This document shows, piece by piece, positions 17,342-61,030 of a DNA stretch of 64,000 nucleotides. Source of the DNA: an uncultured cyanobacterium (GTDB lineage Bacteria > Cyanobacteriota > Cyanobacteriia > Cyanobacteriales > CAWUOF01); assembly GCA_963744145.1 (NCBI GenBank), contig CAVUSO010000001.1, positions 4,032,001 to 4,096,000 on the forward strand, in the 5' to 3' direction. The notes below the pieces were generated by a model, which was not told where the DNA came from, did not search any database, and saw only the letters and a program-made list of their open reading frames with translations. A program made the translations under genes and the position numbers. Numbering within the stretch: the first letter of the stretch is position 1; each line of letters begins with the position of its first letter.

Positions 17342-19174
17342 ATGACAGCAAATCCTCATGACATCGTTCCAGCCCATCTAGCAGTACAAGCAATGCGTGA
17401 TAATGGCTACAGGAATGCCGCTTACGCGATCGCTGAACTGATGGACAACTCAATCCAAGCAGGTGCTACTCATGTCGAGTTACTCTGTGCAGAGAAAAAA
17501 GAATTAGTCAATTCTAGACAACGCTCGCGCATCCATCAAGTCGCTGTCTTGGACAACGGTTGTGGTATGGATGCTAGCGTATTGCGGATGGCATTGCAGT
17601 TTGGAAACGGTACTCATCTTAACGAAGCTGATGAAAATCGTGGAATTGGACGTTTTGGGATGGGACTACCTTCTTCATCAATTTCTCAATGCCAGCGTGT
17701 CGAAGTTTGGTCTTGGCAAGAAAGCCCAGAAAATGCCCTTTATAGTTACCTTGACCTCAATGAAATTCGTCAAAGGCGGATGACTGAAGTACCTGAACCA
17801 CAGCTAAAAGCAGTTCCTCATCTCTGGTTGAAAGTAGGTAAATATTTTGAGAGCAGTGGCACCCTAGTCGTTTGGTCGAATATTGATCGTTGTATTTGGA
17901 AAACAAGTAACTCAATTATTGATAATTCTGAACTGCTTATTGGCAGGATGTACCGAAAATTCTTAAATAGCGGTCAAGTTGAGATTCGGATGTTTGCATT
18001 TGAGATAGATGATCTAATCCCCATCGTTAATGAGAAAAAAGCTCGACCCAATGACCCTGGTTATCTGATGGCAAAAACCTCTTGCCCTAAACCCTTTAAC
18101 GAAATCTCAATGTTCCAACCTTGGGGAGATGAGGATCAGTATGAAGCCATCGTCACAATTGATTTTCGGGGTAAGTCCCATGAAGTCAAAGTTCGCTACT
18201 CCTATGCTAAAGAAGAAGCTAGACTAACTGGTAAGCGTGGTAGTAATCCAGGTGAACAACCGCACGGCAAACACGCTGCTAAAAACATTGGTATTTCCCT
18301 TGTACGAGCAGATCGAGAATTAGAACTAGATCAAGAGTTAGTCATTAAATATGATCCAGTAGAACGCTGGTGGGGAGTCGAAATTGAGTTTCCACCAGGA
18401 CTAGACGATTTGTTCGGCGTAACTAATAACAAACAAACAGCACGGAACTTCACTGAAATTGCTAAGTTAGATATAGAATCCCTTTTAGGAAATGATAAAA
18501 CTATCATTGAACTTAAAGACGAACTAAAAGAAGACGAAGATCCAAAAGGTCCTCTACTAGAACTTGTAATGAAAGTAGATGCACAACTTAAAATTATCCG
18601 TCGTTTACTGAAAGCACAGACTAAAGGTACTCGCGGCACTGATGAGAAGCGCTATAAAGAAGTTTCTGAAGAAAAAGGAACTTATAAAACAGGAACTCGC
18701 AAACAAGAAGGCCATAAAGGCGGAAGCGATAAAGATGAATCACTACCCAAAGAAAAGCGTGAAGAAGTCATTAAGGATGCTTTAGTCAAGCAGGGCGTAG
18801 CTGAAATTAGAGCTAAGGAACTCGCGGCAACTACTGTCGATAATGGACTCAAGTACACTTTTGCTGAAACTGACATAGAAACTGCTGCTTTCTTTTCCGT
18901 CACACCAAGAGGTGGTAGTATTATTATCATGCTTAATACTAACCATCCAGCTTACAAAAATCTTATGGAAATTTTAGCAGAAGAGGTAGAAGGAGTTGAC
19001 GTAGAAATCTTACGCGGGCGTTTAACTAACTCCCTGGAAGGATTGAAATTACTTTTGATGGCATGGGCGCGTTATGAAGACGAACAACCAGATGGAAAAA
19101 GAAAACAAGCCGCTCAAGATGCCCGAGTTGACTGGGGAAGAATCGCGCGACAATTCCTAGAAACTGAAGAATAG
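17342..19174 (+). CDS. second GHKL/MORC-type ATPase
   Basis: AIAELMDNS, DNGCGM, GRFGMGL. Confidence 0.88.
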   Translation: MTANPHDIVPAHLAVQAMRDNGYRNAAYAIAELMDNSIQAGATHVELLCAEKKELVNSRQRSRIHQVAVLDNGCGMDASVLRMALQFGNGTHLNEADENRGIGRFGMGLPSSSISQCQRVEVWSWQESPENALYSYLDLNEIRQRRMTEVPEPQLKAVPHLWLKVGKYFESSGTLVVWSNIDRCIWKTSNSIIDNSELLIGRMYRKFLNSGQVEIRMFAFEIDDLIPIVNEKKARPNDPGYLMAKTSCPKPFNEISMFQPWGDEDQYEAIVTIDFRGKSHEVKVRYSYAKEEARLTGKRGSNPGEQPHGKHAAKNIGISLVRADRELELDQELVIKYDPVERWWGVEIEFPPGLDDLFGVTNNKQTARNFTEIAKLDIESLLGNDKTIIELKDELKEDEDPKGPLLELVMKVDAQLKIIRRLLKAQTKGTRGTDEKRYKEVSEEKGTYKTGTRKQEGHKGGSDKDESLPKEKREEVIKDALVKQGVAEIRAKELAATTVDNGLKYTFAETDIETAAFFSVTPRGGSIIIMLNTNHPAYKNLMEILAEEVEGVDVEILRGRLTNSLEGLKLLLMAWARYEDEQPDGKRKQAAQDARVDWGRIARQFLETEE

Positions 19175-20102
19175 CCAAAAAAATTGTGATTATACCGGGA
19201 ATTCAATTAGAAAAGATTTGTACAGAAGCCTATAAGGAAATTCTTCTTGTTGCTCCTTTTATTAAGGCTTCTGTTCTTAAAAAATTACTTACACAAATAT
19301 CTTCTGAAGTCACCATAAAATGTGTTACCCGCTGGCAACCTGAAGAGATTATTGCAGGTGTGAGCGATTTAGAGGTATGGTCTTTGCTTAAACAACGTCC
19401 TCAATCTTTTCTTTGGTTAAGACCCAACTTACACGCTAAATATTACCGTGCTGATGAACAATGCTTAGTGGGTTCAGCTAATTTAACAGCGAAAGCTTTG
19501 GGTTGGTCAAAGCTATCTAATCTTGAACTAATGATTCAATTACCTGCTACTCAAGGAAATTTCCAGACTTTTGAAACCGAACTTTTCCAAGGTTGTATTC
19601 AGGTTGATGAGAATTTGTTTGAGCAAATGTCAACAACAGTGCAGCTATTAACTGCACAATTTCTCAAAAATTTGTCTATTATTAGTATCATTTCTGATAG
19701 TTTAGCAGAAGATTCAGATATTACAGAAATTTGGCTCCCTAGTTTGCGAAATCCAGAAAATTTGTATTTAGCCTATTCGGGACAAGAGGATAGATTGACT
19801 TTAATATCACGGGATGCAGCTGCTCAAGATTTGCGATCGCTATCTATTCTTCCTAATCTAACGAAAATAGCTTTTATATCTTATGTAGGAGTTATTTTAC
19901 TCCAAAAACCTATCATTCAAAAAATAGATTCCTTTGTTATAACACCGCAGACATTTGGTGCTGTAAGAGATTTATTAGCATCTCTTTCTTGTGCAAAGTT
20001 ACCAAATTTTCAAGCTGATCGCGCTTGGCAAACATTAATGCGTTGGTTACTATATTTTCACCCTAATCAAAACACTTAATCAATGCACAGTATTCAGGCA
20101 TT

Positions 20103-20125
20103 AAAAAACCACCTAGGTAGGTGGT
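20103..20125 (-). terminator. intrinsic terminator after the IS110 recombinase
   Basis: ACCACCT-N4-AGGTGGT stem followed by a T6 run on the minus strand. Confidence 0.75.
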
Positions 20126-20139
20126 GCCAAACAATACAG

Positions 20140-21420
20140 TTACATTCTACACAAAATCCTAAACAGCAATCGCATGGCGTAATTAATTAGTTGTGATCGA
20201 GCTAATCTTATTGGTGTTTTGTTAATTTTCATCTCATCAAATTTCTTATGCAATGCAATGTTCAGAGGTAACGTCTCCATCACTGTAATCCACTTACCAT
20301 CAGGTTTACCGTTCTCCCTGAACTGATAACCTTTCTCTACTTGGATATTGCAGTGCTTTACCCTAGCGTGCTTGATTTCAATCCTAGTGAAGCACCATTG
20401 AAACAACGCGGTTTTACAAATATCAGAACCACCGCTACTCACTTTATTTTCTAAATCTCCTGAGCTTTCTTCTCTAGGAGCGCAGCCTAAGCCTTTCAGG
20501 AAACGTGCCAAAGACAGATGGCGCTTAGTATTTCTCTTTTCTCCTGGGTAGAACTTAACATCTGGTTTACCGTCTACCAAATAGTTCTCGATCGGAAAAA
20601 CCTGACTGATCAAGATTGACTGAATCCTCAAGCCAAAGCCAAATTCTTTAAAAACTTTCCGATATTTGTCAAACCTGACATCTTCCAGTAGCAGCGATCG
20701 CAGTTCTCGTTCGATTACAATCTCCTCTTCCTGAATCCCGCAGATCCGTTCAGCGTGCCGTCGCACATCGTCTTTCAATCCAGATCCACCAGTTGCAGCG
20801 TAAAGGCGATCATATTTGGCTGATTTCTTCTTGCCTGCTATCCACGCCCAAAGCAAAGGTAAATTTTCTCCTTCTGGTAATCGGCGTGAATTGATCAATG
20901 CTGCTTCAGGAAATTGCCATGCTAGCTTTTGTCTAGCGTAATTGATAATTGGACTTTGCACCCTATTGAGGTGTGCAAGTTGCAGCACTAGCTCTCGAAT
21001 TCGCACAATTGTGAAATCTCTAACTTGCAAGAATTCTCGATTATTATCTCCGTACTGCATCCCGTAAAGTGCTAATGCAAGAGCGTCGTTAGTATCTTTC
21101 TTATCAGGAAGTCTTAAAGCTTTCCGGTGTTCTTTTAACTTCTTGTGATCAACTAACCTAAGTTCTATCCCAGCACGAGCAAGATGAGTTGACCAAAGCT
21201 TTAGGTAGTTCACCCCCGTTGGTTCTGCTACGGCGATAACATCAGAGCGATCACCAATAAATTCCAACAACAGTTTCAGTCCATGTGAATCTGCATGGAA
21301 AATTTCAAAGTGCTTCTTAGACCTAGCGTATGCTATAATGTCAGCAGGTTTTTCTAACAATAAGCACACGGTCACAGTTGCCTTTGATACGTCCAATCCA
21401 AGGTAACGTTTATTATTCAT
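20140..21420 (-). CDS. IS110 DEDD recombinase/transposase
   Basis: YLGLDVSK, EPTG, KKDTNDA (DEDD RuvC-like) and PREESSG (catalytic-Ser motif); ATG at 21420 preferred over TTG at 21444. Confidence 0.92.
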   Translation of the reverse strand: MNNKRYLGLDVSKATVTVCLLLEKPADIIAYARSKKHFEIFHADSHGLKLLLEFIGDRSDVIAVAEPTGVNYLKLWSTHLARAGIELRLVDHKKLKEHRKALRLPDKKDTNDALALALYGMQYGDNNREFLQVRDFTIVRIRELVLQLAHLNRVQSPIINYARQKLAWQFPEAALINSRRLPEGENLPLLWAWIAGKKKSAKYDRLYAATGGSGLKDDVRRHAERICGIQEEEIVIERELRSLLLEDVRFDKYRKVFKEFGFGLRIQSILISQVFPIENYLVDGKPDVKFYPGEKRNTKRHLSLARFLKGLGCAPREESSGDLENKVSSGGSDICKTALFQWCFTRIEIKHARVKHCNIQVEKGYQFRENGKPDGKWITVMETLPLNIALHKKFDEMKINKTPIRLARSQLINYAMRLLFRILCRM

Positions 21421-21444
21421 TTTTCGCTTAGGTGATATTGCCAA

Positions 21445-21652
21445 AATCTCATCTCTGCGGTTTACGAATCACCCAAAAACCCAATGTTAAACACGAGTTT
21501 GATTCACCCTTAAAACCATTAATTAGAGAGAGATTAAGTTGAGTTATGAGTAGCCGAGTTTATGAAAATAGAAAAACCCTAAAGAGTTTGTTTCTTCCTT
21601 AAAACCCTAAGTTACTCTTATCCAACTGCAAGAAGGTTTGGAAGCTTCCTGC
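21445..21652 (-). ncRNA. putative bridge RNA (5' hairpin, target-binding loop, donor-binding loop)
   Basis: Two copies of scaffold GAGTTTG-N9-TAAAACC (plus strand) with N9 = TTTCTTCCT (21591-21599, target match) and ATTCACCCT (21502-21510, donor match); opposite-side guides GAAAATA (21564-21570) and ATCACCC (21468-21474); closing stems visible. Confidence 0.8.
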
Positions 21653-21706
21653 TACCTCCCCAGGGGAGAGGTTTCGTCTAGTGGCTAACTAGACTCATCA
21701 GGAAGG
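21645..21706 (-). ncRNA. type I hammerhead ribozyme
   Basis: Minus strand: CUGAUGA, stem II GUCUAGU/ACUAGAC, GAAA, stem III ACCUCUCC/GGGGAGGU, GUA triplet, short stem I with one U-C mismatch. Confidence 0.8.
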
Positions 21707-21971
21707 TCTAAAACTCAGCGTTCATTTCTATGGGGTGAGGTAAATCATCAGGTTAGTCCTCATCATCATCAGGGTGATCCTGGTCTACGACGGTATAACC
21801 TTCTAGAGTTATGTCCTCGACTTCAAATAAGTTACTAGGTATCTCGTCATAATGCTCATCTGGGTGATCATTTTCTTCCTAATCGTTATGCTTTATCAGT
21901 TCCTAATTACTCTGAAGTATTTTACCGACTCAAAACTAACAAGTAGTTTATTTAAGTAACATAGGCAAAGT

Positions 21972-46260: not shown

Positions 46261-46333
46261 GCCCCCATCGTCTAGAGGCCTAGGACACCTCCCTTTCACG
46301 GAGGCGACGGGGATTCGAATTCCCCTGGGGGTA
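46261..46333 (+). tRNA. trnE: tRNA-Glu (UUC)
   Basis: Cloverleaf: acceptor GCCCCCA/TGGGGGT, anticodon stem CCTCC-CTTTCAC-GGAGG, TTCGAAT T-loop. Confidence 0.97.
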
Positions 46334-60780: not shown

Positions 60781-61030
60781 GTCAACTACCCACGCTAATC
60801 GGAGTACCGATATAGCGTAGGCTTGCAAAAGCCTAGTTGACCAGTCTCCGTGGTGCTGTTAGCAGTGCCACTACGTTTAAGGCAAGCGTTAAAGAACCTA
60901 CCAGCGGATGCGTAGCTAGTCTTCTGCTCTAGAACTTGAAGGTTAAACAGGCCCCAAGGTTAAGCCAGTGCTTTCAGGATAGTACCGACCTTAAACATTG
61001 ACGAAGCTAACATTACCCAGCAATGGAGTT
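60781..61030 (+). ncRNA. omegaRNA (HEARO-like) scaffold
   Basis: GTCAACTAC..TAGTTGAC first stem, CTACGTT, GGATGC..CTAGTC..GCTCT, AACATTGACGAAG motifs directly upstream of iscB. Confidence 0.88.

Follow-up and report, generated by a model that had tools for sequence, protein, structure and literature searches.

Bridge RNAs guide a new class of programmable recombinases, and the way in which they are produced in nature is only partly known. Among retrotransposons, the HDV-like ribozyme of R2 and the hammerhead ribozymes of Penelope-like elements and retrozymes free the 5′ ends of element RNAs from co-transcripts. Likewise, in engineered hammerhead-guide-HDV cassettes, a ribozyme gives a guide RNA a defined end whatever promoter drives its transcription. 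Hammerhead ribozymes cleave their RNA on the 3′ side of nucleotide H17.

For IS621, transcription of the bridge RNA has been described to start at a sigma-70 promoter that forms anew across the RE-LE junction when the element is circular (Durrant et al. 2024, PMC11208160), and the only ribozyme mentioned in the parts of that paper considered here is an HDV ribozyme engineered to follow bridge RNAs. In integrated IS621 copies the bridge RNA has been reported to be weakly expressed, yet it is needed for excision (Hiraizumi et al. 2026, PMC13626964). A recent preprint on COMPASS (10.64898/2026.10.21.760802) handles hammerheads and bridge RNAs separately in the sections considered here, and its mining of bridge RNAs required the domain pair PF01548+PF02371. 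A full-text search of the main texts of openly available papers brought up no account in which a ribozyme is coupled to a bridge RNA. An earlier note on the DNA described below, which had been made from the sequence, also knew of no such coupling.

The DNA analysed here is a stretch of 64,000 nucleotides, hereafter called the window. We consider it probable that the window holds one copy of a cyanobacterial IS110-type element of ~1.65 kb in which a type I hammerhead ribozyme at the left tip is fused to the 5′ end of the bridge RNA. The element belongs to the NCBIfam group transpos_IS110_2 and extends on the minus strand from about 21704/21706 to 20057. Its recombinase gene (20140 to 21420, minus strand, with the ATG at 21420) encodes 426 amino acids and was assigned by NCBIfam and Pfam profile matches. 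The protein scores 437.1 bits against NF051857 (transpos_IS110_2), for which the cut-off is 180, and it matches the Pfam family DEDD_Tnp_IS110 with an E value of 1.5e-8. The match to the C-terminal Transposase_20 domain is weak (14.9 bits, E = 0.035), the score against NF033542, the model for 'RNA-guided' IS110 recombinases, is 55.4 bits and thus under the 140-bit cut-off, and the PF01548+PF02371 pair is absent from the window recombinase at Pfam cut-offs. The reading frame is open in the window, and a terminator-like hairpin with a T run lies directly past the stop codon (20103 to 20125, minus strand). Homologues of the recombinase number in the hundreds at about 50% identity, and those with names come from filamentous cyanobacteria. 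No closer relatives of the window element were found, the nearest proteins being 51-55% identical, and PLSDB plasmids gave no DNA match to it.

Upstream of the recombinase gene, the minus strand from 21706 to 21648 reads as a complete type I hammerhead sequence. The 5′ strand of stem I, CCUUC (21702 to 21706), coincides with the left tip of the element or falls immediately outside it. It is followed by core nucleotides C3-A9, CUGAUGA (21695 to 21701, identified by sequence reading and by the strict descriptor given below), and by the 7-bp stem II hairpin GUCUAGU-UAGCC-ACUAGAC (21676 to 21694), which opens on a G-C pair and has the loop UAGCC. Next come the core nucleotides G12, A13 and A14 (GAA, 21673 to 21675) and the stem III hairpin ACCUCUCC-CCU-GGGGAGGU (21654 to 21672), whose 8 bp include one G-U pair and whose closing pair, within these coordinates, is A15.1-U16.1; its loop is CCU. 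The GUA triplet occupies 21655-21653, and by the hammerhead rule self-cleavage is predicted between A17 (21653) and G1.1 (21652). All 11 conserved core bases are kept, with A as H17, and stem I comprises five positions with one U-C mismatch at 2.2/1.2. The 3′ strand of stem I, GCAGG (21652-21648), is also the first 5 nt of the predicted product, where it begins the 8-bp 5′ stem-loop GCAGGAAG/CUUCUUGC (21628 to 21652), whose loop carries a conserved UCCAAA word. The predicted cut lies 208 nt from the TTG of the listed open reading frame and 232 nt from the ATG at 21420, the point at which homology with the relatives sets in.

A strict descriptor, which demands CUGANGA, a stem II of at least 3 bp, GAAA, a stem III of at least 4 bp closed by A-U, and an H17 that is not G, finds exactly one site on the two strands of the window, and this site is the motif at 21706-21648. 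The core bases, stems, GUA triplet and coordinates reported in the earlier note all agree with our reading of the minus strand, and we confirm its observation that the motif is more than a chance occurrence. Taken alone, the window motif would nevertheless be doubtful, because Rfam hammerhead models are silent on it and because its minimum-energy fold has a shifted stem I. The search with Rfam models that had been suggested as a check was carried out with release 15 and returned no match in the window at gathering scores, nor any at E ≤ 10 on 21350-21850. It is the comparison with relatives, at the level of sequence, that supplies the decisive evidence for a hammerhead.

Relatives were collected by a recombinase-homologue scan with one genome per species, which yielded 80 cyanobacterial IS110-type loci. 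A simple descriptor recovers a hammerhead-like motif in 30 of these, one in each, always on the recombinase strand and upstream of the gene. We built a family covariance model from 25 relatives, which had been picked by a descriptor requiring some pairing, and left the window out. This model matches the window at 21645-21709 on the minus strand with 35.0 bits and an E value of about 1.2e-8 (filters off, rough calibration), and the next-best match in the window reaches 9.9 bits (E = 0.93). Matches at E ≤ 2.2e-6 are found in 71 of the 80 loci, all of them upstream of the recombinase and in the recombinase sense, and in the loci measured by the simple scan the core lies about 226-335 nt before the start codon. 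Thus, the conservation of the core in related IS110 elements, whose failure would have counted against the earlier reading, is observed, with the motif at the same place.

The nine loci without a match are of several kinds. Two have too little upstream sequence (31 and 120 nt), three belong to elements that have lost their 5′ end by truncation, and in one the 5′ half of the motif has been removed. The other three (two from Spirulina and one from Microcoleus) have bridge-RNA loops without a hammerhead, and since these loops look intact, the hammerhead does not seem to be indispensable. The Rfam hammerhead models are silent on relatives too (20 loci at gathering scores, 11 loci at E ≤ 10). Given that the family model is highly significant, we read this silence as low sensitivity to a very short stem I rather than as absence of the ribozyme.

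As judged from the alignment of the family, the pattern of variation is that of a hammerhead ribozyme. In the 72-row alignment, which was fitted by the model and hence to the structure, the complete core CUGANGA...GAAA...UH is present in 62 copies, with GAAA invariant in all 72. Position N7 is U in 45 copies, C in 19, A in 4 and G in 1. The cleavage triplet is GUC in 64 copies and GUA in 8, and never GUG, so that H17 is only C or A; the pairs A15.1-U16.1 and C15.2-G16.2 are invariant in the family. The core is changed or displaced in 10 of the 72 copies, for example by U4C in four and by C3U in two. Large insertions are confined to two places, stem II (46-81 nt) and the loop of stem III (47-64 nt).

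The stems themselves are maintained by paired changes. Among the 25 relatives, 95.3% of the stem cells are paired, against 79.0% in shuffles (none of 500 shuffles reached the observed value) and 27-49% in controls in which the strands were slid. Cells with changes on both sides number 59, compared with 13.3 in shuffles, and the covarying pairs comprise five of the seven modelled in stem III and four of the five modelled in stem II. In the 72-row alignment 95.4% of cells are paired, and double-change cells number 236 against 75.9. Over the two alignments, 9-10 of the 16 modelled pairs vary on both sides; as the sequences are related, none of these counts represents independent events. Stem I, which is 2-6 bp long in all family members, shows almost no covariation (one of four pairs in the 72-row alignment), and two of its four modelled pairs are often open, in 7 and 6 of the 25 relatives, respectively. 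The sequence of stem II in the window is wholly unlike the GCCGG/CCGGC of the relatives, with pairing preserved. Covariation across homologous ends, to which the earlier note had looked for a check, is therefore strong in stems II and III.

A further interaction joins the ribozyme to the sequence past the cut. In the family, GACUC in loop II pairs with GAGUC at nt 8-12 past the cut, and compensatory variants of this pseudoknot are seen. Pairing is found in 88.1% of its cells, against 81.2% in shuffles and 2-54% in slid controls, and there are 13 double-change cells against 1.8 (a number reached in none of 500 shuffles). The pseudoknot is not kept in the window, where, by eye and in the alignment row, one G-U of the five pairs remains in register. 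By eye, loop II and the 3′ tail of the window could form at best a shifted 3-bp AGC/GCU pairing. In natural hammerheads such pseudoknots are common, and rapid cleavage when Mg2+ is low has been reported to depend on them (Perreault et al. 2011, PMC3088659).

These patterns bear on the idea that the likeness to a hammerhead is incidental, and that the left end consists of DNA signals for the recombinase or the donor loop, without RNA catalysis. The motif does occupy the very left tip, the place required for the donor half-site, and the invariant 3′ guide of the donor loop, GGGUGA, can by our reading pair with the left-end sequence CCGCCU at five of six positions when G-U/G-T wobbles are allowed. 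The silence of the Rfam models also fits such a view. However, it leaves unexplained the compensatory changes in two hairpins and a pseudoknot, the restriction of free variation to N7, an H17 that is never G, and the confinement of large insertions to stem II and the stem III loop. We therefore regard an origin in DNA signals as very improbable.

Past the predicted cut, the 5′ hairpin of the product, which re-uses the 3′ strand of stem I, is followed by two similar loops. When the starts of the products are folded, at least three of the first 4 nt lie in the 5′ hairpin of the minimum-energy structure in 41 of 46 distinct sequences. The first loop of the window, at 21548 to 21618 on the minus strand, is the putative target-binding loop, with the 5′ guide AAGGAA+GAA (21600-21592) and the 3′ guide CUAUU+UUC (21571-21564). 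The second, the putative donor-binding loop, occupies 21459 to 21519 on the same strand and has the 5′ guide AGGGUGAA (21510-21503) and the 3′ guide GGGUGAUUC (21474-21466).

Both loops can be related to the ends of the element. The right-end tip of the window element, TTGATTAGGGTGAA (20057 to 20070, minus strand), was recognized by its homology to the tip of the relatives, (C/T)TAGAGTGAA, and contains GAA as the likely core. The donor-loop 5′ guide AGGGUGAA is identical to TTAGGGTGAA within this tip (20066-20057). The relatives carry AGAGUGAA in the donor loop and at the right-end tip (C/T)TAGAGTGAA alike, and compared with them the window has a matching A-to-G change in its donor guide and its right-end tip. 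Of the 72 copies, 62 have a donor guide of the form [AG]G[AG]GUGAA, which lies 127-206 nt past the cut in all loci but one, in which there is a second copy at +56.

The 3′ guide of the target loop is hypervariable and is followed by UUC. Taking the reverse complement of this guide gives a prediction for the 5 nt that adjoin the element on its right side. Agreement with the right flank is complete (5/5) in 21 of 39 loci, 4/5 in nine, and three or fewer in nine. By comparison, at most four loci were perfect in any of 2000 shuffle-control runs, and the mean identity was 1.52 rather than the 3.95 observed. The reverse complement of the window guide is GAA-AATAG, and the window has AATAT after GAA at its right flank, a match of 4/5. 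These matches fix the right end and the (G)AA core, and they also lead to the span of about 20057 to 21704/21706 for the window element. The 5′ guide of the target loop is equally variable and could not be matched to the sequence around either junction, with all offsets up to 60 nt tried in both orientations. Matches to it with one mismatch occur at 11 scattered positions among 70 loci, the window's included, and an element start at AGGAAGAA, 171 nt upstream of the window core, was rejected as a match at chance rate. Recombination on a 'half-match', as reported for IS621 (Xie et al. 2026 preprint), may bear on this unmatched left half.

Judging by the guide matches, the RNA past the cut behaves as a bridge RNA. 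The 3′ product of the cut had been predicted to consist of a 5′ hairpin followed by target and donor loops, and the agreement of the guides with the right end and the right flank bears this out. The central proposal of the earlier note, a hammerhead whose 3′ product is a bridge RNA, thus gains support from conservation, covariation and guide matches, and the predicted link between the two RNAs is well supported at the level of the family.

The left boundary was placed with the help of copies that reside in the same genome. Alignments of such copies (groups L041/L047, L066/L067 and L016/L026/L062) begin 2-3 nt before CUGAUGA, which puts the catalytic core at the extreme left tip. Stem I therefore draws part of its 5′ strand from the junction or the flank, where the sequence is often AACCGC, and by homology the window strand at 21702-21706 may likewise be partly flank or junction sequence. 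The family model has no match at an alternative left boundary between GAA and CGCTGAG (about 21721), nor at three TCACCC words (21872-21733) that were considered as candidate relic left ends.

The state of the window copy is less clear than that of its family. When a 76-nt stretch of the window is folded, the minimum-energy and centroid structures both adopt a shifted stem I register and not that of the hammerhead. The computed energies are -19.8 kcal/mol for the hammerhead-competent fold and -28.4 kcal/mol for the alternative register, which is more stable by 8.6 kcal/mol, and the active 2.1-1.1 pair of stem I has an ensemble probability of about 1e-6. The alternative pairing, CUUCCUG/CAGGAAG, buries C3-U4-G5. 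Of seven relatives that were folded, five have the hammerhead shape as their minimum-energy structure, and the remaining two, which are of a Microcoleus type with an extra U after A9, have another minimum-energy shape.

The CUUCCUG/CAGGAAG pairing had been put forward earlier as a possible switch. We find that the pairing does exist, whereas a role as a conserved switch was rejected, since the relatives, by eye and in their folds, have no equivalent shifted register. Because it has no counterpart in relatives and is predicted to dominate, the alternative pairing looks like a handicap of the window copy. It had also been suggested that the mismatch in stem I is the base needed for the product hairpin. 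This explanation does not hold, as C1.2 of the relatives pairs with G2.2 and also takes part in the product hairpin. The deviating base in the window is instead U2.2 (21703), at the variable junction of the element.

The mismatched stem I, the lack of the pseudoknot and the predicted preference for an inactive pairing together indicate that the window copy may cut slowly or not at all, and from the folding models the prospects that it cleaves efficiently seem about evenly balanced. One reading that deserves appreciable, if less than even, weight is that the hammerhead of the family is real and the window copy is an impaired or dead relic, its RNA forming a three-way junction with a shifted stem I and undergoing no maturation by self-cleavage. 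Apart from the features just named and the 8.6 kcal/mol in favour of the inactive register, this would suit an element whose genome cluster has a single copy of it (1 member, 1 contig), whose nearest relatives share only about 50% identity with it, and whose family-model score is near the bottom, exceeding only 4 of 72 matches. Decay is harder to reconcile with the retention of 11 core bases, closed stems and an allowed GUA triplet, which argues for selection on the window copy given that its stem II and stem III sequences are not shared with relatives. The recombinase also retains an open frame, a matching change is seen in donor guide and right-end tip, and nearest-neighbour energies omit the tertiary stabilisation of the hammerhead core.

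Possible starts for transcription of the bridge RNA were sought upstream of the motif and in the joined ends. A scan of the integrated copy found no sigma-70-like promoter on the minus strand upstream of the motif in the window, and by eye there is no -10 box at the right spacing in the joined ends. The sequence TTG(A)CT near the right-end tip was considered as part of a junction promoter and rejected by eye, because its -10 box would be GAGCCG inside the hammerhead, which is not promoter-like. For the motif to be maintained at the left tip, transcripts must come in from outside it. The proposal in the earlier note that any read-through transcript could give mature guide RNA is less well supported than its central reading.

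The conserved arrangement suggests that these elements trim their own guide RNA. We propose that transcription enters the element from beyond its left tip, coming either from flanking host DNA or, if the element is circular or repeated in tandem, from the right end, and that as little as 2-6 nt of upstream RNA would suffice as the 5′ strand of stem I. Stems II and III are encoded by the element. The hammerhead could fold once G1.1-G1.4 emerge, and in most relatives the 5-bp pseudoknot would join loop II to the 3′ tail. The RNA would then cut itself after H17 to give a 3′ product that begins with a 5′-OH G, and this cut would define the functional 5′ end. Thereafter, the first nucleotides of the product and the pseudoknot partner would exchange stem I for the 5′ stem-loop of the bridge RNA, and such refolding would make the cut effectively irreversible.

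Perhaps the ribozyme serves mainly to free element RNA from host transcripts, with the defined end of the bridge RNA as a by-product, but we consider this unlikely. The cut lies upstream of both the bridge RNA and the recombinase, with no predicted terminator between them in the window, and it would insulate host genes or control the stability or translation of the recombinase mRNA through its 5′-OH end. The processing of long transcripts into RNAs of gene length has been proposed as a function of bacterial hammerheads (PMC3088659), and the three bridge-RNA loci mentioned above manage without a ribozyme. A by-product would hardly be expected to have its cut fixed exactly at the first base of a conserved 5′ stem-loop, with the stem I 3′ strand and the pseudoknot partner made of bridge-RNA nucleotides. 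These shared nucleotides imply that ribozyme and bridge RNA evolved as one unit.

It is tempting to extend this proposal into a fuller scheme, which we offer tentatively, since all of its parts together seem to us possible but short of probable. A cyanobacterial branch of IS110 elements would have swapped the circle-junction promoter of the IS621 type for a built-in hammerhead, so that any transcript crossing the left tip, in the integrated state too, would yield a trimmed bridge RNA with a 5′-OH end. The dozen base pairs of the left tip would then be used twice, as the right-donor half-site in DNA and as stem I and the start of the core in RNA. Finally, cleavage would trigger the refolding of stem I and the pseudoknot into the 5′ stem-loop, and this would license the RNA for the recombinase.

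What is new here, as predicted from these data, is the task of the hammerhead and the route by which the bridge RNA obtains its 5′ end. If this is true, the problem of how an integrated copy is supplied with guide RNA for its own excision would be solved, and bacterial hammerheads, whose functions are mostly unknown so far, would acquire a new biological role. It would also be the first case found of a DNA transposon that matures its own guide RNA by self-cleavage, and it would offer a ready-made, promoter-independent cassette for the expression of bridge RNAs. Moreover, the family represents a large set of hammerheads (71 of 80 loci) that is missed by current Rfam models.

Compared with natural type I hammerheads as described by Perreault et al. 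(PMC3088659), the motif has the same core (CUGANGA/GAAA/UH), with stems II and III closed and stem I open, and the family has a similar Watson-Crick pseudoknot between loop II and sequence beside stem I. It is also like hammerheads of that study in being bacterial and in lying beside mobile DNA, although the bacterial examples described there are mostly near integrase or prophage genes and not IS110 elements. Unlike in natural hammerheads, stem I here has 2-6 bp with its 5′ strand at the boundary of a transposable element, and nucleotides of a guide RNA supply both the pseudoknot partner and the 3′ side of stem I.

With IS621 and IS110 elements as described by Durrant et al. (PMC11208160), the locus shares a non-coding left-end RNA upstream of a DEDD recombinase, the order of a 5′ stem-loop, a target-binding loop and a donor-binding loop, and guides that match the ends of the element and its flanks around a shared core. 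In contrast to IS621, the window recombinase falls into a separate NCBIfam group, NF051857, and under the cut-off of NF033542, the core appears to be (G)AA, and the left half of the target is unmatched.

By analogy, the element resembles R2, Penelope-like elements and retrozymes in that self-cleavage of the RNA at the element's 5′ edge would permit the use of outside transcription. Those are retroelements, and the product of cleavage is a transposition template or mRNA, whereas here the mobile element is a DNA transposon and the product would be the guide RNA of a recombinase. Ribozyme-flanked guide cassettes, for their part, are laboratory designs, and the element described here would be their natural counterpart at the 5′ end.

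The target-binding loops of 80 related cyanobacterial IS110-type loci (L001-L080) were compared with the sequences that flank each element. In most loci, the target-loop 3′ guide agrees with the right flank. The 5′ guide, which is as hypervariable as the 3′ guide, has no match within 60 nt of either junction. Judged from these sequence comparisons, natural target matching in this group looks one-sided.

The donor loop carries an invariant 3′ guide, GGGUGA, and perfect complements to it are found in the left flank of the insertion sequence in the window, where three TCACCC words occur (21733-21872, minus strand). Two of the three are followed by (T/A)GATGA, and both of these belong to a direct repeat of 31 nt (21756-21786 and 21846-21876, 74% identity). 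The same interval is also an open frame (encoding DHPD... repeats) that lacks a start codon. The stretch could represent relic left ends of the element or a gene remnant. A search of this stretch with the covariance model of the hammerhead, built from 25 relatives, returned no match.

Among the related loci, stem II of the hammerhead carries insertions of 46-81 nt in L023, L025, L028, L030, L037-L039, L042, L045, L046, L049, L051, and L056, and the stem III loop carries insertions of 47-64 nt in L060, L066, and L067. Many of the stem III helices in Nostoc are based on GCGATCGC, the cyanobacterial HIP1 palindrome. Microcoleus-type loci (e.g., L007, L008, L019, L021, L044, L048, L050, and L062) have an additional U after A9, just before stem II begins to pair (CUGAUGAU-GG...); an additional base at this position is tolerated by some viroid hammerheads. 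Minimum-energy folding gave no hammerhead shape for L008 or for L016, a related Microcoleus-type copy.

Three loci, L054 and L055 from Spirulina and L069 from Microcoleus, have recognizable target and donor loops upstream of the recombinase gene and no hammerhead. Their loops are preceded instead by a G+C-rich stretch of different sequence. Either the ribozyme has been lost from these loci or their lineage never had one.

The four copies of the element in one Nostoc genome (L002-L005) are homologous over about 860 nt upstream of the hammerhead, whereas homology begins at the hammerhead in three other genome groups. The Nostoc element may reside inside a larger repeat or may have an extended left part.

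Two adjacent plus-strand ORFs in the window are a possible defence pair. One (17342-19174) encodes an ATPase of the GHKL type (HATPase_c_3; its first 187 aa match PADLOC MzaB, E 1.6e-18), and the other (19186-20079) encodes a PLD-like protein (PLDc_2; PADLOC ZacB and DrmC). Because the final 23 nt of the PLD-like frame fall within the right end of the IS110-type element, the original C-terminus of this protein may have been replaced through the insertion.

Other RNAs in the window include a plus-strand tRNA gene (46261-46333; Rfam 57.1 bits) and a full-length HEARO RNA (60781-61016, plus strand; RF02033, 124.8 bits). IS605/IsrB-like elements use HEARO as their guide-type RNA, and the window therefore holds a second RNA-guided mobile element that is unrelated to the IS110-type one.
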